From an uncultured Acidobacteriota bacterium (lineage in GTDB: Bacteria > Acidobacteriota > Vicinamibacteria > Fen-336): a stretch of DNA of 64,000 nt. The notes beneath the pieces were generated by a model. It saw only the letters and a list, made by a program, of their open reading frames with translations, was not told the DNA's origin and made no database searches. How positions within the stretch are numbered: position 1 is the stretch's first letter; every line of letters begins with the position of its first letter. The translations under genes were made by a program, and so were the position numbers. Location: contig OY970399.1 in assembly GCA_963720545.1 (NCBI GenBank), forward strand, positions 3,392,001 through 3,456,000. Reading direction: 5' to 3'. Below, piece by piece: positions 2,625-19,133 of the stretch.

Positions 2625-2648
2625 CGCGGGAATATAATCCTTCGCGGG
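2625..2648. promoter_or_regulatory. Overlapping divergent -10 elements for the acyltransferase and xdh operon
   Basis: TATAAT at 2633-2638 (+) and TATATT at 2636-2631 (-) in a 24-bp AT-rich gap. Confidence 0.6.
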
Positions 2649-4889
2649 ATGCGGGCGATCGGCAAGAGCGTGTTGCGCACGGAGGGCCCGGACAAGCTGT
2701 GCGGCGCCACGCGCTACACCGACGACATCGAACCCGAGGGTTGCCTGCACGGCGTCACGCTGCGCGCGACCATCCCCTACGGGCGGATCCTGGCGATCGA
2801 GAAGGACCCGGCCTTCCCCTGGCGCGAGTTCGTGGTGGCGACCGCGAAGGACCTGCCGGGGCCCAACCGCGTGCAGCTCATCGAGGACGACCAGCCGCTC
2901 CTCTGCGAGGAGTGGGTGCGCCATCCGTACGAACCGATCCTGCTGGTGGCGCACGCCAACCGCTCGCGGGCGTACGAAGCCCTCCGGCACATCCGTGTCA
3001 CCTACGAGCCGCACGAGCCGGTGCTCTCGATCGACGACGCGCTGGCGGTGAAGCAGAAGCTGCGCGGCGAGGACAACGTCTTCAAGTCGTTCCACATCGT
3101 GCAGGGCGACATCGACGCGGGCTTCGCGGCGGCCGACCTCGTAGTTTCAGGCGAGTACACGGTGCCGCACCAGGAACAGGCCTACATCGAGAACAACGTG
3201 ATGACCGCGTGGTTCGAGGCGGACGGCACGCTGGTGGCGCACGGCTCGATGCAGTGCCCGTACTACGTGCACAAGGCGCTGCGCGGGTTGTTCAAGCTGA
3301 AGGGCGAGAAGGTGCGGGTCATCCAGGCGCCGACCGGCGGCGGCTTCGGCGGCAAGGAGGAGTACCCGAACATGATCGCTGGTCACGCGGCGCTGCTGGC
3401 GCGCAAGGCGAAGCGGCCGGTGAAGATCGCCTACGACCGCCACGAAGACATGGCGGCCACCACCAAGCGCCATCCGGCGCGCATCCGCCACCGCACCGGC
3501 GTGAAGCGCGACGGCACACTGGTGGCGCAGGACATCGAGGTGGTCATGGACGGCGGCGCCTACATCACGCTGTCGCCCGTGGTGTTGTCGCGCGGCACGC
3601 TGCACGCGACCGGGCCGTATGCCTGCCCCAACGTGCGCATCCGCTCGAGTGTGGTCGCGACCAACACCGTGCCGAACGGCGCCTTCCGTGGTTTCGGGGC
3701 GCCGCAGACGCTGTTCGCCGCCGAGCTGCACATGGCGCGCATCGCCGCCGAGCTGCGCCTCGACCCCGTGGCGCTGCGCGAGAAGAACGCGGTGCGCCGC
3801 GGCTCGGTGATGGCGACCGGCCAGGTGCTGCGCGAGAGCGTCGGCGCGCGCCAGGCGCTGCAGCGCGTGGTCGCCGACTCCGGCTATCGCCGCAAACGGG
3901 TCGAGCACGCCAGGTGGAACGCGCAGCCGGGCACTGCGCACTGGAAGGGCGTGGGCCTGGCGCTCGTCCACCACGGCTCGGGCTTCACCGGCAGCGGCGA
4001 GGAGCACCTCGCGAGCCGCGCCGCGGTGACGCTGACCCGCACCGGCCGCATTCGCGTGCTCGCCGGCTCCACAGAATTCGGCCAGGGGACCAACACGATG
4101 TTCAGCCAGATCGTCGCCGAGACGCTCGGCGTCGCGACAGCTCTCGTCGACGTCGCGACTCCCGACACCCGCTTCGTCCCCGACAGCGGGCCGACGGTGG
4201 CGAGCCGCACCTGCATGGTCGTCGGCCGCCTGGTGCGCGACGCGTGCCGCGACCTGCACGCGGCGGTCAGCGGCCGCAAGCCGTTTCCGCGCTCGGCGCG
4301 CGACCTGCGCGCGGCCGCGAAGCGCGTCTGCGGCACGCGCGACGAGGTGCGCTTCGAGCGCCAATACGAGAAGCCGGCCGCCATCACCTGGGACGACACC
4401 ACCTACCGCGGCGATGCCTACGAAGCGTACGGCTACGCCGCGGCGGTGGTGGACCTCGAGGTGGACAAGCTGACGTTCGAGGTGACGCTGCGCCGCGTCA
4501 CGCTCGCCGCCGACATCGGCCGGGTGGTGAACCCGGTGCTCGCCGCGGGCCAGGTGATCGGCGGCGCGGCGCAGGGCCTCGGCTATGCGCTCCTCGAGAA
4601 CCCAGTGTACAAGGACGGGGCGATGCAGAACGCGCAGCTCACGAACTACATCATCCCGACCGCGAAGGACCTGCCGCAGATCGACGTCGCTTTCACGCCC
4701 GCGCTCTACTCGCTCGGGCCGTATGGCGCCAAGGGTGTGGGCGAGTTGCCGATGGACATTCCCGGGCCGGCGGTGGCCGACGCGGTGCACGACGCCACCG
4801 GCCTCTGGATCACCTCGCTGCCGGTGCTGCCGGAGAAGATCGCTGCGGCGCATGGCGCCCGCCGGCGCGGCACCGCGGTGCCGGCGTGA
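2649..4889 (+). CDS. Xanthine dehydrogenase family molybdopterin-binding subunit
   Basis: GATRYTDD, QEQAYIE, GGGFGGKE, AFRGFGAPQ, EFGQG, SGPTVASR, AKGVGE; purine cluster context. Confidence 0.93.
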   Translation: MRAIGKSVLRTEGPDKLCGATRYTDDIEPEGCLHGVTLRATIPYGRILAIEKDPAFPWREFVVATAKDLPGPNRVQLIEDDQPLLCEEWVRHPYEPILLVAHANRSRAYEALRHIRVTYEPHEPVLSIDDALAVKQKLRGEDNVFKSFHIVQGDIDAGFAAADLVVSGEYTVPHQEQAYIENNVMTAWFEADGTLVAHGSMQCPYYVHKALRGLFKLKGEKVRVIQAPTGGGFGGKEEYPNMIAGHAALLARKAKRPVKIAYDRHEDMAATTKRHPARIRHRTGVKRDGTLVAQDIEVVMDGGAYITLSPVVLSRGTLHATGPYACPNVRIRSSVVATNTVPNGAFRGFGAPQTLFAAELHMARIAAELRLDPVALREKNAVRRGSVMATGQVLRESVGARQALQRVVADSGYRRKRVEHARWNAQPGTAHWKGVGLALVHHGSGFTGSGEEHLASRAAVTLTRTGRIRVLAGSTEFGQGTNTMFSQIVAETLGVATALVDVATPDTRFVPDSGPTVASRTCMVVGRLVRDACRDLHAAVSGRKPFPRSARDLRAAAKRVCGTRDEVRFERQYEKPAAITWDDTTYRGDAYEAYGYAAAVVDLEVDKLTFEVTLRRVTLAADIGRVVNPVLAAGQVIGGAAQGLGYALLENPVYKDGAMQNAQLTNYIIPTAKDLPQIDVAFTPALYSLGPYGAKGVGELPMDIPGPAVADAVHDATGLWITSLPVLPEKIAAAHGARRRGTAVPA

Positions 4890-5602
4890 TCAACCTCTCG
4901 GTCAATGGCCGCCGTCGCGCCTTCTCGGGGCCGCCGTGGAAGCGCCTCCTCGACGTGCTGCGCGAAGACTTCGCGCTGACGGGCACCAAGGAGGGCTGCG
5001 GCGAAGGCGAGTGCGGTGCCTGCACCGTGCTCATAGACGGCGCCCCGGTGAACAGCTGCCTGATCCCCGCCTGCCAGGTCGCCGGCCAGCGCGTCGAGAC
5101 GATCGAAAGCCTTGGCCGCCCCGCGGCGCTGAGCGTCTTGCAAGAACGCTTCCTCGCGATGGGCGGCGCGCAGTGCGGCATCTGCACCCCGGGCATGCTG
5201 ATGGCCGCCTGGGCCCACGTCAAAGCCGGCGGCTCCGCTTCCCCCGACGCTGTTCGCGAGCAACTGGCCGGCAACCTCTGCCGCTGCACCGGCTATCAGG
5301 CGATTGTGGATGCTGTTATTGAGACGATTCGTCTTGAGACGATTCGAAAATCGCTAAAGCGAATCGTCTCAATTCCGGGCCAGAGGTCCGTTGCCGCTCC
5401 CAGGAAGAAGTCCGTCCGTCCTCCCAGGAAGAAATCCGTTCGTTCTCCCAAGAAGAGAGCGGCGCCGCTTTCCAGGAAAAGGACCGTCGCGTCCGCCACA
5501 AAGAAATCAGCAGCGCCTGACAAACGGAAATCTCGTCCTCGGAGGAAGTCCGTTGTCAGGTCAGCTATGTCTCCGAAGACGAGAAGCGTGAAGACGAGAT
5601 AA
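4886..5602 (+). CDS. Xanthine dehydrogenase 2Fe-2S subunit with Lys/Arg-rich C-terminal extension
   Basis: GTKEGCGEGECGACTV, QCGICTPG, GNLCRCTGY; GTG overlaps upstream TGA; ~90-aa basic tail. Confidence 0.92.
   Translation: MINLSVNGRRRAFSGPPWKRLLDVLREDFALTGTKEGCGEGECGACTVLIDGAPVNSCLIPACQVAGQRVETIESLGRPAALSVLQERFLAMGGAQCGICTPGMLMAAWAHVKAGGSASPDAVREQLAGNLCRCTGYQAIVDAVIETIRLETIRKSLKRIVSIPGQRSVAAPRKKSVRPPRKKSVRSPKKRAAPLSRKRTVASATKKSAAPDKRKSRPRRKSVVRSAMSPKTRSVKTR
5319..5372. repeat. 13-bp motif TTGAGACGATTCG: two direct copies plus one inverted copy
   Basis: Copies at 5319-5331 and 5334-5346; reverse complement CGAATCGTCTCAA at 5360-5372. Confidence 0.9.
5396..5539 (+). repeat. Degenerate in-frame 24-bp tandem repeat encoding basic octapeptides
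   Basis: Units encode APRKKSVR, PPRKKSVR, SPKKRAAP, LSRKRTVA, SATKKSAA, PDKRKSRP; first two units nearly identical in DNA. Confidence 0.8.
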
Positions 5603-5603
5603 C

Positions 5604-6470
5604 GTGCGCGGTAATCCTCTTCGCATCACCGTGTCGCGGCCAGCCACAGCGGAGCAGGCGATTGCCGCGTACGCCGCGCGGCCTGACTCGCTGCCGTTTG
5701 CCGGCGGCACCGACCTGATGGTCGCCTGGAACGCCGGCGACTGGCACGACCGCGAAGTCCTCGACCTGTCGGCGCTCGACGAGTGGCGCAGCATCGCTGC
5801 GGCGGCGGGGGAATTGCGCATCGGCGCCCTGGCCACGCACACGAGCCTGCGCCGCCACGAAGCGGTCGCCCGCCACGCGCCGCTGCTGGCGTCGGCCTGC
5901 GCCACCATCGGCGGCATCCAGATCCAGAACCGCGGCACGCTCGGCGGCAACATCGCCAATGCCTCGCCGGCGGGCGACACGTTTCCGCCGCTCGCTATCT
6001 ACGACGCCGTGGTCCACATCGCCGCAGCGCGCGGCGCGCGGCAGGTACCGTTCGCCGCGGTGTTCAGCGGCGTGAAGAAGACCGTGCTCGAACCGGGCGA
6101 GCTGATCGACGCGATCACGATCCCGATCCCGGCGGCGCCGCCCGACCGGGTGATGTTCCGCAAGGTCGGCACGCGCGCCGCGCAGGCGATCTCCAAGGTG
6201 GTCGCGGCCGGCGCCTTGTGGTTCACGGCCGACGGCACCGTGGCCGACGTCCGCTTTGCCCTCGGCAGCGTGGCGCCGACGGTGAAGCGCGCCGCCGCGG
6301 TCGAGAAATTCCTCAAGAACCGCTGGCTCACCAGGAACGTGGTGCGCGAGGCGTGCCTCAAGCTCGAAGCCGACATCAAGCCCATCGACGACATCAGGTC
6401 CACCGCGGAGTATCGAATAAACGTTGCCAGGGCGCTGCTGTCGTCCTTCCTCGGCCAGGACCCCCGTTGA
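5604..6470 (+). CDS. Xanthine dehydrogenase FAD-binding subunit
   Basis: AGGTDL, QIQNRGTLGGNIANASPAGD, PIDDIRSTAEYR. Confidence 0.93.
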   Translation: MRGNPLRITVSRPATAEQAIAAYAARPDSLPFAGGTDLMVAWNAGDWHDREVLDLSALDEWRSIAAAAGELRIGALATHTSLRRHEAVARHAPLLASACATIGGIQIQNRGTLGGNIANASPAGDTFPPLAIYDAVVHIAAARGARQVPFAAVFSGVKKTVLEPGELIDAITIPIPAAPPDRVMFRKVGTRAAQAISKVVAAGALWFTADGTVADVRFALGSVAPTVKRAAAVEKFLKNRWLTRNVVREACLKLEADIKPIDDIRSTAEYRINVARALLSSFLGQDPR

Positions 6471-7792
6471 AAACGAAACGGCCGGAGAAACAAGCGCGGG
6501 CGTCGTTCACCCCGGTGCTGGCCACGCTGCGCCGCGCCAACAGCGTGCTGGCGAAGCGCTATCCGGGCGATCCCGACGGCCGCCAGCCGGTGCACACCGT
6601 CTACGGCGGCGCGCACCTCTTCAAGGCCGATACCGCACCGCGCCTGGGCGCGCTCGCCCTGCGCGCGCTCGACCAGCACGCGCCCGACCCGATCTCGTTC
6701 GCCGGCGCGCTGCAGTTGCAGGTGCCCGACGGCCTCGACCCGTTCCGTCACGCCACCGAGATCTACGAGCGCGTCACGGCCAAGCTGCGACGTGAGCCGG
6801 TGGAAGACTTCCGCATCGACTTCGAGGACGGCTACGGCAACCGCCCCGACGCCGAGGAGGACGGGCACGCCGTGTCCGCGGCCCGCGCCGTGGCGGAGGG
6901 TGCCCGGGCGGGCACGCTGCCGCCGTTCATCGGCATCCGCATCAAGACGCTCTCGAACGAACTCGCCGCGCGCAGCCTGCGCACTCTCGAGGTCTTCGTC
7001 GCCACGCTGGTAGAGGCGACCGGCGGCCGGCTGCCGCCGGGCTTCGTCGTCACCCTGCCGAAGATCATGGTGCCCGGACAGGTGCGGGCGCTGGCGCGGG
7101 CGCTTGCCGCGCTCGAGAAGGCGCACGGCCTCGCCGACCACTCGCTGCGCTTCGAGCTGATGGTGGAGACCACGCCCTCGATCTTCGACCACGAGGGACG
7201 CCTGGCGCTGCCGGCCCTGATCGCGCTCGGCGACTCGCGCATCACCGCGGCGCACTTCGGCACTTACGACTACACCGCGTCGTGCAATATCACCGCCGCA
7301 CACCAGTCGATGACGCATCCGGCCTGCGACTTCGCCAAGCAGGTGATGCAGGTGGCGCTCGCCGGCACCGGCATCACGCTCTCGGACGGCGCCACCAACG
7401 TGATGCCGGTCGGCGAGCGCGAGACCGTGCACCACGCCTGGCACCTGCACTTCCAGCAGGCGCGCCATTCGCTGATGCAGGGCTTCTACCAGGGGTGGGA
7501 CCTGCACCCGGCACAGCTCGCGAGCCGCTATGCCGCGGTCTACTCGTTCTTCCTCGAGGGCCTCGGGCCGGCCTCCGAACGGCTGCGCAACTTCGTGGAC
7601 AAGGCGGCGCAGGCAACGCTCGTCGGCGACATCTTCGACGACGCCGCCACCGGCCAGGGCCTGCTCAACTACTTTCTGCGCGCCCTCAACTGCGGCGCCA
7701 TCGACGAGGCCCAGGCGCTCGCCACCGGCCTCACCCGCGACGAGCTGCGCACCCGCTCGTTCGTGCGGATCATGAAGGCGCGGCGCGCGTAG
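6467..7792 (+). CDS. CitE/HpcH-HpaI aldolase-lyase superfamily protein (DUF6986-like)
   Basis: RQPVHTVYGGAH, DFRIDFEDGYG, VTLPK, ELMVET, HFGTYDY, QGWDLHPAQL; TTG overlaps FAD-subunit stop. Confidence 0.75.
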   Translation: MKTKRPEKQARASFTPVLATLRRANSVLAKRYPGDPDGRQPVHTVYGGAHLFKADTAPRLGALALRALDQHAPDPISFAGALQLQVPDGLDPFRHATEIYERVTAKLRREPVEDFRIDFEDGYGNRPDAEEDGHAVSAARAVAEGARAGTLPPFIGIRIKTLSNELAARSLRTLEVFVATLVEATGGRLPPGFVVTLPKIMVPGQVRALARALAALEKAHGLADHSLRFELMVETTPSIFDHEGRLALPALIALGDSRITAAHFGTYDYTASCNITAAHQSMTHPACDFAKQVMQVALAGTGITLSDGATNVMPVGERETVHHAWHLHFQQARHSLMQGFYQGWDLHPAQLASRYAAVYSFFLEGLGPASERLRNFVDKAAQATLVGDIFDDAATGQGLLNYFLRALNCGAIDEAQALATGLTRDELRTRSFVRIMKARRA

Positions 7793-8593
7793 TCAGCGCC
7801 TGCGGATCCACCAGGCCGCGCCCCAGCCGACCAGGACCATCGCACCGAGCACCGCGAGCGGGTGGCCGCTGCCGTAGGCGATTGTCGGGAAGTGGCTGCC
7901 GACCATGGTGAAGAGCACCGGCAGCACGATAAAGGTGTTGTGCCTGGAGCGGCTCCTGGCGGTGGCCGCGAGCAGCGGATCGGGAGCCTGGCCGGCGCGG
8001 ATGGCGCGCACCATCTGCTTCTGGCCGGGGATGATGCGGTCGGTGACGTTCGTCGCCATGATGGTGCCGAGCAGCGCGCCCACGTGGATGTAGGCGGCGC
8101 GCGGGCTCATCACCTGCAGCAGCCACCACGCGGCCGCCAGCAACAGGAGGTACGAGAGGACGATCGCGGCTGTCTCGAAGCGGCCCATGGCGCGCGCCCA
8201 GAGCTGGTCGTACACCATCCGGCCGACGAACACGGTGAGGATCCCCTGGAACACGGCGCGCCCGACGCTCGCTTCGGGGTCGGCCACCATCAGCCCGCCG
8301 GTCCAGTACACCATCAGCAGCAGCGCGACGCCCGAGGACCAGGTAAAAATCGCCTCCCACTGGAACCAGTGCAGGGTCTTCGGCAGCGGCGCCAGTGTCG
8401 CACGCTTCTCGACCACGTAGAAGCCGCCGCTGTGCACCATGAACACCTGGTTGCCGGGGTTTTCCTCGGCGTCGGCGAACGCGCGCTCGAGGAACGTGAA
8501 GAGCCAGGTCTGGCCGATCCAGAGAATCGCCGCGAACACGTGCGACCAGCGCAGCGCGAGGTGCAGCCATTCGCTCCAGTCGCTCCACTGCAT
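7793..8593 (-). CDS. puuD: Urate hydroxylase PuuD-family membrane domain, no cytochrome c domain
   Basis: LRWSHVFAAILWIG, MVHSGGFY, LHWFQWEA, GTIMATNV, IIPGQ, RSRHNT; no CxxCH; adjacent to uraH. Confidence 0.82.
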   Translation of the reverse strand: MQWSDWSEWLHLALRWSHVFAAILWIGQTWLFTFLERAFADAEENPGNQVFMVHSGGFYVVEKRATLAPLPKTLHWFQWEAIFTWSSGVALLLMVYWTGGLMVADPEASVGRAVFQGILTVFVGRMVYDQLWARAMGRFETAAIVLSYLLLLAAAWWLLQVMSPRAAYIHVGALLGTIMATNVTDRIIPGQKQMVRAIRAGQAPDPLLAATARSRSRHNTFIVLPVLFTMVGSHFPTIAYGSGHPLAVLGAMVLVGWGAAWWIRRR

Positions 8594-8597
8594 GGGC

Positions 8598-8942
8598 TTA
8601 CGTCCCCTTGTAGGTGCTGTAGCCGAACGGGCTCAATAGCAGGGGCACGTGGCTGTGCGCTGTGGCGTCGTCCACGTCGAATACCACGATCGCGTACGGG
8701 AAGAACGAGCGGCTGCCTTTCTCCGACTGGTACACGCCCACCTCGAAGGTGAGCCGGTAGCGGCCGGTGGTGAAGTCGGAGCCGCCCCAAAGGCCGCGCG
8801 CCCGGCCGTCGGCATCGGTGTGGCCGCGGCCGACGACCACCCAGTCGCCGCCGACTTCCTTCTCGAGGAGCACCGGCACGCCGGCCGCCGGCCGGCCGCG
8901 CGCCGTGTCGAGCACATGGGTCGTGATGCCACCACCGTTCAT
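8598..8942 (-). CDS. uraH: 5-hydroxyisourate hydrolase
   Basis: ITTHVLDTARGRPA, TDADGR, HVPLLLSPFGYSTYKGT. Confidence 0.95.
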   Translation of the reverse strand: MNGGGITTHVLDTARGRPAAGVPVLLEKEVGGDWVVVGRGHTDADGRARGLWGGSDFTTGRYRLTFEVGVYQSEKGSRSFFPYAIVVFDVDDATAHSHVPLLLSPFGYSTYKGT

Positions 8943-9452
8943 CTAGGGAACCTCCGCGAGCCACTTGTCGAGCCGCAATGCAGTGATCTTCTCCTGTTCG
9001 CTCGCCGCTTTCCTGAGCTCGGCCGCGGGCGAGGCGCGCAGCCGCTCGCGCAGGTCCTCGAGCATGTCCGCGGCGCTCCGGCCGGTGGCACAGACGATGA
9101 AGATGTGGCCGAACTGCCGCTCGTACTCCAGGTTGCCGGCCATCAGCGCCACGAGCGTCTTTTCGTCAGCGCCAGCCGCGGCGTGCTGCTCGCCCTGCGA
9201 CCAGGTGGCGGCGAAGCGCTCGCGCATCGCCTCGAGGTCGCCGATGCGCGGATGTTGCGCGAACGCCTCGAGCCAGTCCTCGCGGTCGAGCGCGCGCCAT
9301 GCCGTGCGTGCCGCCTCGTGGAGCGCTGCCGCGCTTGCGAACGGCCGGCCCAGGAGCATGGCGTCAACCCAGCGGCTCGAGCCGCAGCAGCGGCTGAAGC
9401 CGGCCGCGGCATCGGCCTCAGGAAGGCCGTTAACGGCGGCGAGTCCGCCCAT
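8943..9452 (-). CDS. uraD: OHCU decarboxylase
   Basis: CCGSSRW, EAFAQHPRIG, SQGEQ, NLEYERQFGHIFIVCATG, EQEKITALRL. Confidence 0.93.
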   Translation of the reverse strand: MGGLAAVNGLPEADAAAGFSRCCGSSRWVDAMLLGRPFASAAALHEAARTAWRALDREDWLEAFAQHPRIGDLEAMRERFAATWSQGEQHAAAGADEKTLVALMAGNLEYERQFGHIFIVCATGRSAADMLEDLRERLRASPAAELRKAASEQEKITALRLDKWLAEVP

Positions 9453-10422
9453 GGATCCGCAACCTGCTGATGCCGCCGTCCGGGAAGATGCGCAGGCGCA
9501 CGTGGGTGAATGGCCCCGCGGCGCGCAGCATCGCCGCGCCGAAATAGTGCCGCGTGTTCGCCTTCAGCGGGCTGCGCTGCAGCACGTCCTGCCACGGCCC
9601 GCCGTCCACATCGGCGGCCACCGCGTCGGCTTCGCCCAGGTGCGCCGCCTGCAGCGACGCGCTCTCCGGGAAGTTGCCCTTGAAGTGGTTGGTGTCGATC
9701 TCGATGCGCTCCAGCACGCCGGCGTTGCCGAGTTTGACGATCACCCAGTCATAGCCCGGCCCGCGGCGCCGCCGCGTCTCCCACCCCTCGCCCATGTTGG
9801 GCGCGCGGCCCGGCAGGATCAGGTTCGACTTGAGGCCGAAGTGTTCGTCGCTCGCGAGCAGCACGCGGCCGCCGTGTTCCAGCGCCGCGAGGTCCACGAG
9901 CTTGCCCGCGAGCGCCGGCCAGTCGACGCTGACCTCGCCGTGGACCCGCAGGCGCGCGACGCCGCCGTCCGGAAAGATGTTGAGCCGCACGTGCGTCACC
10001 GGCGGGCGCAGCGGCACTTCCACGGGGTTCGACGCGCCGGGCGACAGCAGCCACGGATCGACGACCTGCACCCAGGCGGCGTGCGCCAGCTTGTCCTTGG
10101 TGGCCGTGCCCTTCAGGTCGCAGACGTCGATCGAGGCGCGCTCCGGCTGGTTGCCGATGAAGTAGTTGGTGTCCACGTCGATGCCGCGCAGCACGCCGCG
10201 CAGCCCCAGCTCGACGATGCACCAGTCGTGGCCCGGGGTGCGGCGCCGGCGCGTCTCCCAGCCGTCCATCCACTTGCCGCGCTGGGTGAACTTGTCGGCG
10301 ATGAAGACGCCGCGGCCGGGGCGCAGGAGGTTGTGGCGCGAGGCGAAGAACTCGTCGTTCGCCAGCAGGGCGCGCCCGCCGACGCGTGCGGCGGCGAGGT
10401 CCGGATAGTCAGCGAAGTCCAT
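9430..10422 (-). CDS. alc: Allantoicase
   Basis: Two repeats, each with (D/E)GWETRRRR and RLxIFPDGG(V/I)xRLR; ATG at 10422. Confidence 0.95.
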   Translation of the reverse strand: MDFADYPDLAAARVGGRALLANDEFFASRHNLLRPGRGVFIADKFTQRGKWMDGWETRRRRTPGHDWCIVELGLRGVLRGIDVDTNYFIGNQPERASIDVCDLKGTATKDKLAHAAWVQVVDPWLLSPGASNPVEVPLRPPVTHVRLNIFPDGGVARLRVHGEVSVDWPALAGKLVDLAALEHGGRVLLASDEHFGLKSNLILPGRAPNMGEGWETRRRRGPGYDWVIVKLGNAGVLERIEIDTNHFKGNFPESASLQAAHLGEADAVAADVDGGPWQDVLQRSPLKANTRHYFGAAMLRAAGPFTHVRLRIFPDGGISRLRIHGRTRRR

Positions 10423-11770
10423 GTCGTCGTCGCTCCAGCAGCTCACCGCGGGGCGCGACATCTGCGAGGACGCCCTCGCCGAACACGCGCGTGCCCCGCA
10501 CGAACGTCGCCACCACGCGGCCGCGCAAGGTGCGTCCAAGGTAGGGGGTCAGCGCGTGGCGGTGGCGAATCATATCCTGCGCCACGACCACGCTTCCATC
10601 GGGGTCGAAGGCCACCACGTCGGCGTCGAGGCCTGCCGCCAGCCGGCCCTTGCGGTGGTCGAGCCCGGCGAGCCGCGCCGGAGCCGCGGCCATCAGGCGG
10701 CTGAGGTCGGGAAATCCAAGGCCGCGGGCCTCGGCCCCGGTCCAGGTCGCGCTGAGCGCGAACTGCAGCGAGGCGATGCCGCCCCACGCCTGCATGAAGT
10801 CCCCGGCCTCGCGTGCCTTCAGCGCCGGCACGCACGGCGAATGGTCCGAGACGACCATGTCGATGGTGCCGTCGGCGAGCGCCGCCCACAGCCGTTCGCG
10901 GTTCGCGCGCTCGCGGATCGGTGGCGCGCACTTGAACTCGGTGGCGCCGTCTGCGATGCCTTCCGCGTCGAAGGTGAGGTAGTGCGGACAGGTCTCGACG
11001 CTGATCGGCACCGAGCGCGCACGCGCCGCCCGGAGCGGAGCGAGCGCTTCGTCCGACGAGAGGTGCACCACGTGCACCGGCGCGCGCAATTCCTCGGCGA
11101 GACCGATGAGCCTGGCGATCGCCGCGTTTTCCCAGGCCTTGGGGCGGCTCGCGAGAAAGGTCGAGTAGGCCGCGGGGCCCGAGGTTGCGGCATGCGGCGC
11201 ACCCAGGTCTTCCTCGGCGTGGGCGAGCAGGGGAATGCCGCGCGGGCCCAGCACAGCGAGCGCCTGCCGCAGGTCGGCTTCGGCGCTGCACGGGAAGTCG
11301 TCGATCCCCGAGTGCACGAGGAACGCCTTGAAGCCGCACGCGCCGGCATCGATCATCGCCGCGAGTTCAGAGGCGTTGCCGGGAACGATGCCGCCCCAGA
11401 AGGCCGTGTCCACATGGCAGCGGCCGGCCGCCGCGGCGCGCTTCTCGGCGAGCGCGGCGAGGGTGGTGGTCACCGGGATGCTGTTGAGCGGCATGTCCAC
11501 GATGGTGGTGATGCCGCCGGCGGCAGCCGCCGCGGTCGCGGTGGCGAAGCCTTCCCATTCGCTGCGGCCCGGCTCGTTGACGTGCACGTGCGAGTCCACG
11601 ATCCCCGGCATCAGCACCAGCGGATCGAAGTCCTCGACCGCGTAGCCCGCGGGGACCTCGTGAGGCGCCGTCACGGCGTCGATACGGCCGTCGCGGATCA
11701 GGATGGCGCCGGGGTTGCAGCCGGCGCCCGTCAGGACGCGGCCGCTGCGCAGGGCCGTGCCCGCCACCAT
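10409..11770 (-). CDS. allB: Allantoinase
   Basis: DSHVHVNEPGRSEWEGF, DMPLNSIP, ETCPHYL, FKCAPPIR, SDHSP, AWGGI; ATG at 11770 overlaps upstream TGA. Confidence 0.95.
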   Translation of the reverse strand: MVAGTALRSGRVLTGAGCNPGAILIRDGRIDAVTAPHEVPAGYAVEDFDPLVLMPGIVDSHVHVNEPGRSEWEGFATATAAAAAGGITTIVDMPLNSIPVTTTLAALAEKRAAAAGRCHVDTAFWGGIVPGNASELAAMIDAGACGFKAFLVHSGIDDFPCSAEADLRQALAVLGPRGIPLLAHAEEDLGAPHAATSGPAAYSTFLASRPKAWENAAIARLIGLAEELRAPVHVVHLSSDEALAPLRAARARSVPISVETCPHYLTFDAEGIADGATEFKCAPPIRERANRERLWAALADGTIDMVVSDHSPCVPALKAREAGDFMQAWGGIASLQFALSATWTGAEARGLGFPDLSRLMAAAPARLAGLDHRKGRLAAGLDADVVAFDPDGSVVVAQDMIRHRHALTPYLGRTLRGRVVATFVRGTRVFGEGVLADVAPRGELLERRRHGLR

Positions 11771-12255
11771 CAGTACGTCTGCTTGCCGGGCAGCGCCTGC
11801 CAGTCGCTGAGCAGCTTGCGGCAGGCGCCGCGGGCGACGCCCTTCACGATCTTCACCTTGCTGCGTCCGAGCCGCTTCAGCGTGGTGTTGGAAATCGTCA
11901 GCTCGTTGAAGCCGAGGCGCTTGACGTCGGGCACCGAGGTGCCGAAGTAGATCCTGTCCACCTGGGCCCAATGGATCGCGGCGAAGCACATCGGGCAGGG
12001 CTCGGTGGTCGAGTACAGCTCGCAGCCGGCGAGCAGGTGCGTGCCCAACGCCTTCGTGGCAATGCCGATGGCTTCGATCTCGGCGTGCCTCGTGGGGTTG
12101 CCGGTGCGCAGCACGCGGTTGTGCGCCACCGCGACGATGCGGTTGCCCTTGACGATGACAGCGCCGAACGGGCCGCCGTCGCCGCGCTTGATGCCGGCCA
12201 GGGCGTTGTCGACGGCGAGCTGCATCAACCGGTTCCTGGTGAGGGTGTCGGGCAC
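11770..12255 (-). CDS. guaD: Guanine deaminase, CDA/TadA-type nucleoside deaminase
   Basis: GGPFGAVIV, HAE, EPCPMC zinc motif, AIHWA; heads the purine operon; GTG start with TACAAT 5 nt upstream. Confidence 0.8.
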   Translation of the reverse strand: MPDTLTRNRLMQLAVDNALAGIKRGDGGPFGAVIVKGNRIVAVAHNRVLRTGNPTRHAEIEAIGIATKALGTHLLAGCELYSTTEPCPMCFAAIHWAQVDRIYFGTSVPDVKRLGFNELTISNTTLKRLGRSKVKIVKGVARGACRKLLSDWQALPGKQTY

Positions 12256-12278
12256 GAGCCATTGTACGCTTCGTCGCG
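12256..12278. promoter_or_regulatory. Overlapping divergent -10 elements for guaD and the GNAT gene
   Basis: TACAAT on minus strand (12266-12261) and TACGCT on plus strand (12265-12270). Confidence 0.6.
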
Positions 12279-16914: not shown

Positions 16915-19029
16915 TCAGTAGGCGAGCAGCCGCTCGAGGGCCTCGTCGACGCGGCCCCTGGGCGAGAACACTTCCTCGAGTGCCTTGCTGAACGGCACCG
17001 GCGTGTCGAGCGCGCCGAGCCGCATCACCGGCGCGTCGAGCCAGGTGAAGGCCTCGCGGCCGATGGTGGCCGCGATCTCGCCGCCGAAGCCGCCGGTGAC
17101 CGGCGCCTCGTGCAGCACCAGGCAGCGGCCGGTGCGCTTCACCGACGCGACCACCATCTCGACGTCCCACGGCAGCAGCGAGCGCAGGTCGATGAGCTCG
17201 ATCTTGCGGTCCTGGGCGGCGAAGCGGTCGACCGCGGCGTCGGCCCACAGGACGCCGGCGCCGTAGGTGACGATGGTCGCATCGCTGCCCACCCGCACCA
17301 TGCGTCCGCGACCGATCGGCACGGTGTAGTAGCCGGCCGGCACCGGGCCCTTCACCTGGCGGTACAGGAACTTGTGTTCGAGATACAGCACCGGGTTGCC
17401 GTCGGCGAACGCGGCGAGCAGCAGCCCCTTGGCGTCGTAGGGTGTCGACGGCTCCACCACCTTGAGCCCGGCGACGCTCGTGAACCACGACTCGACGTTT
17501 TGCGAATGGAACGGGCCGGCGCCCACGCCGCCGCCGATCGGGGCGCGGATCACCACCGGCACGTCGGCGGCCCAGCGATAGCGCGTCTTCGCGAGGTTGT
17601 TGACGATCTGGTTGAACCCGCAGGAGATGAAGTCGCCGAACTGCATTTCGACCATCGGCTTGAAGCCGTCGAGCGCCAGCCCCAGCGCGCAGCCGAGCGC
17701 GCCCGACTCGATGATCGGCGTGTTGCGCACCCGCGCCTTGCCGTACTTTTCGAGGAAGCCCTCGGTGACCTTGAAGACGCCGCCGTAGTCGGCGATGTCC
17801 TGGCCGATGAGCACGGTCTTCTGGTCGCGCTCCATCGCTTCGGCGAGTCCGTCCTGCACCGCGTCCACGAAGCGCATGTCCCTGCCCGCCACGGTCGCCT
17901 CGGGGGTCGGATCCACGGGCGGCGGCGCTGCGGCGTACACGTCGGCCAGCTCGGCGGCAGCGGTCGACTGCGGCTGCGGCGCCGCGAGCGCCTCGTCCAC
18001 CAGCGCGTCCACCTTCGCCTTGATCTCGGCGCGCACCGCGAGGTGCTCGTTCGGCGGCATCACGCCCTGCTCGAGCAGCAGCCGCTCGAGGCGCACCACC
18101 GGGTCCTTCTGGCCCCACTCCGCGATCAGCTGGTCCGGGACGTAGTCGGTGCCCGATGCCTCCTCGTGGCCGCGCATGCGGAAGGTCTTGAACTCGAGGA
18201 GTGTCGGCCCCTCGCCGCGGCGCGCGCGCTCGGCGGCATCGGCCACCGCGTGGTACACCGCGATCACGTTGTTGCCGTCCACCACCGCGCCCTGCATGCC
18301 GTAGCCGGCCGCCTTGTCGGCGAGGTTGCGGCAGGCGAACTGCTCCGACGTCGGCGTCGACAGCGCGTACTGGTTGTTCTCGACCACGAACAGCACCGGC
18401 AGCTTCCACACCGCCGCCAGGTTGACCGCCTCGTGGAAGTCGCCTTCGCTCGTGGCACCTTCGCCGCAGAAGGCCGCGGCCACCTGCTTCGTGCCCTTGA
18501 GGCGCGCGGCCAGCGCCAGGCCGTCGGCCACCGGCAGCATCGCGGCGAGGTGGCTGATCATGCCGACGATGCGCTTTTCCGGCACGGCGAAATGGAAGGT
18601 GCGGTCGCGGCCCTTGGTGAAGCCGCCGTCGCGGCCGAACAGCTGGCGAAAGAGCTGCGCGAGGTCGACCCCGCGGGTGGTGAAGACCCCGAGGTTCCGG
18701 TGCATCGGCAGGATCCAGTCGGAGGGCTCGAGCGCCGACGCCACGCCCACCGCGATCGCCTCCTGGCCCATGCCCGAGAACCACTTCGAGAGGCGGCCCT
18801 GGCGCAGCAGCAGCAGCGCCTTTTCTTCGATGATCCGCGGCAGCAGCAGCGCGCGGTAGATCTGGCGCAGTTTCACCGGGCCGATGCGCGCGGCGAGCGC
18901 CAGGTCTTCCGGGATCGCGCCCTTCATGAGGAACGTGGAAGGCGACGCTGCGATCATGGTGTCCGCGGACCGCTGGATGATGGTTGCCGGCGCCTCGCCC
19001 GGGTCCGTGTCGCGCTTCCACTGGCTCAT
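16915..19029 (-). CDS. 2-oxoacid dehydrogenase E1, fused alpha+beta
   Basis: ThDP motif GEGATSEG...ENN, RMRGHEE, NTPIIES, EMQFGDF, GPFHSQ; start uncertain (19029 or 18957). Confidence 0.9.
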   Translation of the reverse strand: MSQWKRDTDPGEAPATIIQRSADTMIAASPSTFLMKGAIPEDLALAARIGPVKLRQIYRALLLPRIIEEKALLLLRQGRLSKWFSGMGQEAIAVGVASALEPSDWILPMHRNLGVFTTRGVDLAQLFRQLFGRDGGFTKGRDRTFHFAVPEKRIVGMISHLAAMLPVADGLALAARLKGTKQVAAAFCGEGATSEGDFHEAVNLAAVWKLPVLFVVENNQYALSTPTSEQFACRNLADKAAGYGMQGAVVDGNNVIAVYHAVADAAERARRGEGPTLLEFKTFRMRGHEEASGTDYVPDQLIAEWGQKDPVVRLERLLLEQGVMPPNEHLAVRAEIKAKVDALVDEALAAPQPQSTAAAELADVYAAAPPPVDPTPEATVAGRDMRFVDAVQDGLAEAMERDQKTVLIGQDIADYGGVFKVTEGFLEKYGKARVRNTPIIESGALGCALGLALDGFKPMVEMQFGDFISCGFNQIVNNLAKTRYRWAADVPVVIRAPIGGGVGAGPFHSQNVESWFTSVAGLKVVEPSTPYDAKGLLLAAFADGNPVLYLEHKFLYRQVKGPVPAGYYTVPIGRGRMVRVGSDATIVTYGAGVLWADAAVDRFAAQDRKIELIDLRSLLPWDVEMVVASVKRTGRCLVLHEAPVTGGFGGEIAATIGREAFTWLDAPVMRLGALDTPVPFSKALEEVFSPRGRVDEALERLLAY

Positions 19030-19133
19030 AGGAGTAACCCATGCTAGCGCAGCGCCCACCGGGGCCACAGGACGCCTGTGCGCGTGCTCGCTCACATGGC
19101 GCGGAAGCCCAACGGGCGCTAGGATTTGCGCGC

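Follow-up and report, generated by a model that had tools for sequence, protein, structure and literature searches.

The purine gene cluster and its host

A window of 64,000 nucleotides from the genome of an uncultured Acidobacteriota bacterium (assembly GCA_963720545.1, contig OY970399.1, positions 3,392,001 to 3,456,000) contains two convergent operons for purine catabolism (Table 1). The operon on the plus strand encodes the three subunits of a xanthine dehydrogenase (XDH) and a protein of the family DUF6986, and the one on the minus strand runs from a guanine deaminase gene to a gene for a short PuuD protein. We hold with moderate confidence that the operons lead from guanine to ureidoglycolate, that urate is oxidised on the way by the cytochrome-free PuuD, and that the DUF6986 protein cleaves ureidoglycolate, giving glyoxylate plus urea. 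The pathway itself is already known, and what is likely to be new is two of its enzymes, the short PuuD and DUF6986. Neither the short PuuD nor DUF6986 as a lyase is described in the literature searched, which comprised titles and the openings of abstracts and left subscription papers uncovered.

All ten open reading frames (ORFs) translate cleanly, and neighbouring genes inside either operon overlap or lie at most four bases apart. The translation bears out the convergent layout proposed in an earlier, sequence-only reading of the window, the stop codon TAG of the putative lyase gene (7790-7792) abutting the TGA of puuD (7793-7795). That reading also spoke of an island; however, the GC content of the cluster (0.66-0.72) is like that of its flanks, and composition thus gives no support for an island. 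The closest named homologous loci are from Acidobacteriota.

Table 1. Features of the purine gene cluster, in positions of the window.
Feature	Position	Strand	Basis or remark
TATAAT, possible -10 box	2633..2638	+	Ends 10 nt upstream of xdh ATG; read from the sequence
Xanthine dehydrogenase, molybdenum subunit, 746 aa	2649..4889	+	Pfam MoCoBD_1/2
Xanthine dehydrogenase, 2Fe-2S subunit, 238 aa	4886..5602	+	Fer2, Fer2_2
Lys/Arg-rich low-complexity tail of the 2Fe-2S subunit	5300..5602	+	101 aa following CRCTGY
Xanthine dehydrogenase, FAD subunit, 288 aa	5604..6470	+	FAD_binding_5, CO_deh_flav_C
DUF6986, enzyme with CitE/malyl-CoA-lyase/malate-synthase fold, candidate ureidoglycolate lyase	6467..7792	+	DUF6986 profile, E 3e-186
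Short PuuD lacking cytochrome c (7 helices, 266 aa), likely a urate-oxidising membrane enzyme	7793..8593	-	PF06181, 7-helix model
uraH, 5-hydroxyisourate (HIU) hydrolase	8598..8942	-	TIGR02962 above cut-off
uraD, OHCU (2-oxo-4-hydroxy-4-carboxy-5-ureidoimidazoline) decarboxylase	8943..9452	-	TIGR03180 above cut-off
alc, allantoicase (yields ureidoglycolate and urea)	9430..10422	-	TIGR02961 above cut-off
allB, allantoinase	10409..11770	-	TIGR03178 above cut-off
guaD, guanine (or guanosine) deaminase, cytidine-deaminase type	11770..12255	-	dCMP_cyt_deam_1
TACAAT, possible leaderless promoter	12261..12266	-	Ends 5 nt upstream of guaD GTG; read from the sequence

The cluster thus holds XDH, HIU hydrolase, OHCU decarboxylase, allantoinase and allantoicase, the enzymes of oxidative purine catabolism by the allantoicase route, and the coverage from guanine to ureidoglycolate seen in the earlier reading stands. 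AllB, Alc, UraD and UraH are assigned by NCBIfam cut-offs, XDH and guanine deaminase by homology and residues. The best Protein Data Bank matches of GuaD are plant guanosine deaminase (E 3e-29) and the guanine deaminase 1wkq (E 4e-26). The three XDH subunits miss every NCBIfam equivalog cut-off; the best profile for the molybdenum subunit, PucD, gives 485 bits against a cut-off of 784. An alignment of this subunit to Rhodobacter capsulatus XdhB (1jro_B) shows that the positions of Q197, E232, R310 and the catalytic Glu are retained, which we take to be the residues serving substrate binding and catalysis. Xanthine oxidation is therefore the likely activity. A different type of XDH, with a fused FeS-FAD subunit and about 30% identity to the molybdenum subunit of the window, is found in the same cluster in several Thermoanaerobaculia and related bacteria (L015, L044, L052, L055, L075, L084, L109).

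The earlier reading had listed several components as unseen in the window, and had proposed a search for allA, aceB/glcB, uox, hpxO and xdhC in the rest of the genome, which is a single contig estimated to be 94.8% complete. No AllA, uricase, HpxO or cytochrome-fused PuuD was found at this completeness, HpyO not being among the proteins searched for. Encoded elsewhere in the genome are XdhC, an NCS1 permease, MobA/MocA-family nucleoside triphosphate transferases and one FAH-family protein, the last two identified at the family level only, as well as a malate synthase A adjoining isocitrate lyase (aceBA). Among the canonical uricase, AllA and malate synthase, on whose absence the idea of an unusual route depended, only malate synthase was found. 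The description as a variant pathway is upheld by the failure to find uricase, HpxO and AllA genome-wide, and by the strong conservation of both DUF6986 and the short PuuD with purine genes. Two other candidates from the host genome were rejected. A possible glyoxylate carboligase scored under the cut-off, and an M20 protein (C1:1202019) considered as ureidoglycolate amidohydrolase lies outside purine genes and has 32% identity where orthologues have 58-75%.

DUF6986, a candidate for the ureidoglycolate step

The fourth gene of the plus-strand operon was earlier described as an orphan CitE-like enzyme, and this has proved accurate: DUF6986, a family that numbers at least 8000 proteins when clustered at 90%, has the TIM barrel and the lid of the superfamily comprising CitE, malyl-coenzyme A (CoA) lyase and malate synthase. 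Residues D118/E120/D121, R158, E234, D268 and D392 align with the acidic motif, the arginine, the magnesium ligands and the lid aspartate of this superfamily, the roles of the arginine, the Mg-binding Glu/Asp and the lid Asp being taken from the literature (PMC3832036). Among 106 DUF6986 sequences R158 and E234 are invariant, D268 is found in 105, and position 392 is Asp in 94 and Glu in 12. The barrel, lid and catalytic residues are thus those of malyl-CoA lyase, the CitE-like proteins and malate synthases A, G and H (PMC3832036). DUF6986 differs from these enzymes in showing only 16-22% identity to them, in having extra helices after strand 1 and invariant residues of its own (E131, D345 and R354), and in its purine gene context. 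The protein of the window matches neither of the malate synthase A profiles PF01274 and TIGR01344.

The function of DUF6986 is suggested by its distribution. In a sample of 201 genomes of the same phylum (G023 included, the distant match G049 not counted), the family is found in 22 of the 23 genomes with allantoicase (21 of 22 without G023) and in seven of the 178 others. AllA is encoded in ten of the 201; five of these have allantoicase, belong to one genus, and contain weak (E about 1e-8), unlinked matches. Six genomes of the phylum encode allantoate amidohydrolase (allC), ureidoglycine aminohydrolase (allE) and, as a second M20 enzyme, a plant-type ureidoglycolate amidohydrolase. For one of the six, the identity of the latter was checked against solved structures; 4pxe matches with E 4e-139, and the next family with 8e-78. 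DUF6986 was not found in any of the six, and three of them have no malate synthase either. The plant-like allC-allE-amidohydrolase triplets (L032, L118, L244, L245, L247, L248) occur with uricase or with short PuuD.

A similar pattern is seen in Myxococcota. In a sample of 121 genomes, from which the spurious allantoicase match G303 was dropped, 33 have allantoicase; 12 of these have DUF6986 only, five AllA only, 11 both and five neither. At the level of the allantoicase clusters, 13 contain DUF6986, eight contain AllA and none contains both. One genome (G321) has two allantoicase clusters (C312 and C354; L268 and L269), of which one has DUF6986 as its last gene and the other has AllA there, and in operons of the order allB-alc-uraD-uraH the slot directly after uraH is taken by AllA in L274 and by DUF6986 in L268. 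DUF6986 together with AllA or the amidohydrolase was found in none of 282 loci, some of which are duplicates.

The linkage of DUF6986 to purine genes recurs, in many gene orders and on either strand, among Acidobacteriota, Myxococcota, Bacteroidota, Dormibacterota and Actinomycetota. Core purine genes are present at 15 of 29 metagenomic DUF6986 loci of at least 8 kb. In an actinobacterial set of six plasmid-collection records, DUF6986 overlaps allE, which is the alternative source of ureidoglycolate, in Tsukamurella, and lies upstream of alc in Nocardia and of urease in Gordonia. In Paenarthrobacter its neighbours are a puuE-like gene on one side and an NCS1 permease on the other. In a few loci (L229 in G015, L035 and L028 in G157, L029 in G121) purine genes or DUF6986 are split over frames, maybe by sequencing errors or decay.

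AllA has a cupin fold and ureidoglycolate amidohydrolase an M20 peptidase fold, both unrelated to that of DUF6986. AllA/DAL3 (PF04115) and the plant-type amidohydrolase (4pxe) nevertheless have a position in the pathway like that of DUF6986; both consume ureidoglycolate and make glyoxylate. Since DUF6986 is lost where those enzymes appear, it seems to do their job and not that of the step that follows, and from this distribution it is rather probable that DUF6986 is a bacterial ureidoglycolate lyase (EC 4.3.2.3). Ureidoglycolate may be regarded as the nitrogen analogue of a malyl group. Mg2+ on E234 and D268 would hold its carboxylate and hydroxyl, R158 would stabilise the alkoxide, and D392 of the lid would protonate the departing urea, in parallel to what malyl-CoA lyase does with acetyl-CoA. 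DUF6986 would in this way complete the route from ureidoglycolate to glyoxylate and urea, and the glyoxylate would pass to the separate malate synthase of aceBA.

A precedent is known from zebrafish (Danio rerio), where a malate-synthase-like protein is a demonstrated ureidoglycolate lyase in which a conserved Trp is altered (PMC10120013). It shares with DUF6986 the superfamily fold, the glyoxylate site and the association with allantoicase, and the Arg of the malate synthase A motif GRWDY is non-basic in both (Thr, Ala, Val or Pro in DUF6986). In that source the zebrafish enzyme, of about 62 kDa, is placed in a eukaryote-only group of the malate synthase orthogroup. DUF6986 proteins, in contrast, are bacterial, have 430-480 amino acids and are structurally closer to malyl-CoA lyase and CitE. 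These differences imply an independent origin, if DUF6986 is a lyase.

Several observations weigh against this assignment. Most of the genomes surveyed are incomplete assemblies, and five of the six amidohydrolase genomes come from one family, so that the contrasts are not independent. Seven genomes of the phylum have DUF6986 without allantoicase, with non-purine neighbourhoods in the six that were scanned, and the copies in Streptomyces and Nonomuraea have no purine linkage. The joint presence of AllA and DUF6986 in 11 of the 33 allantoicase genomes of Myxococcota, the lack of a separate malate synthase in nine of the 22 phylum genomes with allantoicase and DUF6986, and two myxococcal purine clusters with neither AllA nor DUF6986 that contain a divergent malate-synthase-family gene (L264:2-1660 and L265:3872-6322, weak PF01274) point in the same direction, as does the lid motif FDDAAT, which aligns with MEDAAT of malate synthase. 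CoA binding may moreover have been kept. Several of these points would fit a malate synthase devoted to purine breakdown, or an enzyme with two functions whose single active site both cleaves ureidoglycolate and joins the glyoxylate to acetyl-CoA. DUF6986 has the full catalytic set of malate synthase, its top Foldseek match is malate synthase A, and it retains the Trp aligned to that of the GTW motif, whereas a conserved Trp was altered in the zebrafish lyase (PMC10120013). The nine genomes without another malate synthase also lack urease, and the gene in L264 and L265 stands in place of DUF6986. We still find such a function unlikely. The remaining 13 of the 22 genomes, that of the host included, have a separate malate synthase, so that DUF6986 is not required as one in the host; the clusters with AllA or the amidohydrolase also yield glyoxylate, yet are without DUF6986, and in three of the amidohydrolase genomes both DUF6986 and malate synthase are lacking. 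A Lys that follows strand 1 in all 11 malate synthase A sequences compared is not matched by any constant basic residue in DUF6986, but position 59 is Lys or Arg in 77%. The divergent gene of L264 and L265 is possibly a further candidate for the ureidoglycolate lyase.

It is more improbable still that DUF6986 acts as a general lyase, of C-C or C-N bonds, on some other glyoxylate-related substrate and is a mere companion of the purine module, with ureidoglycolate decaying spontaneously. Such decay is documented (PMC10120013), the copies outside purine clusters would agree with this reading, and so would the five allantoicase genomes of Myxococcota without AllA and DUF6986, in three of which, however, the contig breaks off where the gene would be expected. 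On the other hand, the family stays with the purine cluster across five phyla in many gene orders and on both strands, and was not found in the eight AllA clusters and the six amidohydrolase genomes. If DUF6986 is indeed the ureidoglycolate lyase, it provides a candidate for this step in bacteria that have allantoicase and lack AllA, a function for a large unstudied family, and a second origin of the activity within the malate synthase superfamily. In two genomes without allantoicase, phage portal and capsid genes adjoin DUF6986 (L022:5189-7885 and L023:10994-14830).

PuuD without cytochrome c

According to the paper that founded the family (Doniselli 2015; PMC4562309), full-length DUF989 proteins additionally carry a cytochrome c, which is regarded as essential to PuuD; the enzyme is argued to oxidise urate without making hydrogen peroxide, and short DUF989 forms have four helices and another, non-purine context. 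The PuuD of the window matches positions 4-261 of 295 of Urate_ox_N, contains the conserved loop I-II motif of this DUF989 domain, forms seven helices in its predicted model and has no CXXCH. The earlier term heme-less accordingly holds for heme c only. With the PuuD of Agrobacterium fabrum (Atu2314; PMC4562309) it shares the DUF989 domain, the loop motif, the linkage to uraH and uraD and the alternation with uricase, but it has neither helix VIII nor a cytochrome c domain and belongs to a tree group of its own. From the short variant described in the same text it differs by having seven helices and a purine context instead of four helices and a non-purine one.

The short PuuD is a complete protein, not a broken one, which runs counter to what the founding paper says of full-length members. 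Among its 120 best homologues 119 have 250-282 amino acids and PF06181 only; the remaining one (P0078) is a 452-residue fusion of short PuuD to the OHCU decarboxylase UraD. In all of the 80 named loci, the top-ranking ones among at least 595 matches and so biased towards close relatives, the protein has 249-282 residues from aligned start to stop and no CXXCH. Other purine genes flank it in 69 of these loci and DUF6986 in 54, and the loci come from Acidobacteriota, Myxococcota, Bacteroidota/Ignavibacteria, Dormibacterota and a deltaproteobacterium. The short PuuD occurs with uraH and uraD where uricase is absent. In the 201 genomes of the phylum 19 have short PuuD and ten have uricase (nine without G023), with no overlap, and the two share none of the 282 loci. 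Of the 23 genomes with allantoicase, 18 have short PuuD, four uricase and one neither, and in G071 uricase occupies the slot adjoining uraH.

A quick tree of 46 rows, for which 21 of 103 short forms were sampled, separates cytochrome-fused PuuD, the short purine-linked form (support 89) and a seven-helix non-purine paralogue. The short form has H54, the His of the loop, and E80 in common with cytochrome-fused PuuD (H54 in 16 of 16; E80 in 14 of 16, Gln in two), and both are missing in seven of seven non-purine paralogues, while R15-W16-H18, M179, N182, M230 and H234 occur in every one of the three groups. The host genome encodes a second paralogue of DUF989, in a non-purine neighbourhood. The seven-helix paralogue (G000:C1:2768162-2768911, corresponding to L042:9160-9933, and also L036-L041) is without the MVHSGGFY loop and E80 and is apparently a third DUF989 group, distinct from the published four-helix variant. 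Another form, a PuuD of 549 residues without CXXCH, adjoins a SCO1/SenC gene (L254:6280-7923).

Judged from its distribution and sequence features, the short PuuD likely oxidises urate. The cytoplasmic loop I-II motif (H54) would bind urate together with E80, and the electrons would pass through the membrane domain to an acceptor not fused to the protein, a quinone or a free cytochrome. PuuD may resemble the HemJ-like heme b membrane oxidases; fold and profile searches with the short form gave generic four-helix bundles only. Against urate oxidation by the short PuuD it may be held that 11 of the 80 named loci have no purine gene in the flank, and that no electron acceptor recurs in its loci. 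Among 5548 unassigned ORFs of 120 loci no recurring cytochrome, transporter or regulator partner was found, the recurring neighbours being lineage-specific. An alternative is that the protein is no self-sufficient oxidase and acts as a subunit or scaffold dependent on an unlinked redox partner, or as a carrier of urate, urate being oxidised by another enzyme such as HpyO. Such a role would agree with the importance given to cytochrome c by the founding paper (PMC4562309) and with the lack of a transporter in the cluster, and CXXCH occurs in 101 open frames of the host genome, in many of them probably by chance. It appears rather unlikely, however, as mutual exclusion with uricase, which takes the uraH-adjoining slot in G071, is unexpected for a carrier, the PuuD-specific positions H54 and E80 are retained, a fusion to UraD exists, and HpxO was not found in the host genome. 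Urate oxidation by the short PuuD would mean that no cytochrome c domain is required in cis, and would make this a minimal protein for learning how urate is oxidised by DUF989.

Fate of urea and other features of the locus

The host genome yielded no urease and no urea carboxylase. Urease was found in none of the 36 genomes searched, which include 22 of the 23 with allantoicase, and full-length urea carboxylase in none of the 36 at a strict threshold that split forms would escape. Since both were lacking in this search, the route probably yields carbon and electrons (reducing equivalents) rather than ring nitrogen, which would be released as urea, unused; for the same reason the bacterium is predicted not to grow when urate or allantoin is its only source of nitrogen. 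The cluster has no transporter or regulator, and its role is therefore likely purine disposal with recovery of electrons and glyoxylate. The missing urea-degrading enzymes further suggest that purine nitrogen is released as urea to neighbours. A wider picture, which we put forward as a tentative possibility, is that soil-type bacteria of several phyla have a purine route that ends in urea, which is of no use to them, and serves carbon and electron supply, with a cytochrome-free DUF989 urate dehydrogenase feeding the quinone pool through a cofactor in its helical bundle and an independently evolved ureidoglycolate lyase of the malyl-CoA lyase fold, possibly still making malate.

The basic tail of the XDH iron-sulfur subunit had been counted among the special components of the pathway. 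It is real, with a GC content of 0.55 against 0.71, yet neither its length nor its sequence is conserved, and it was rejected as a functional component. Of 52 homologues 50 stop 10-30 residues past CRCTGY, the other two being long read-through frames, and close relatives have basic tails of 20-72 residues that are unrelated in sequence. There is no second copy in the genome, and the tail is best read as a low-complexity expansion.

A promoter scan that requires a -35 box gave no site upstream of xdh. Near-consensus -10 hexamers lie close to the start codons of both operons (Table 1), suggesting that the leaders are very short or absent. Further along the window, a minus-strand ORF of 726 amino acids (16915-19095) resembles in its translation a fused alpha/beta E1 subunit of 2-oxo-acid dehydrogenase.

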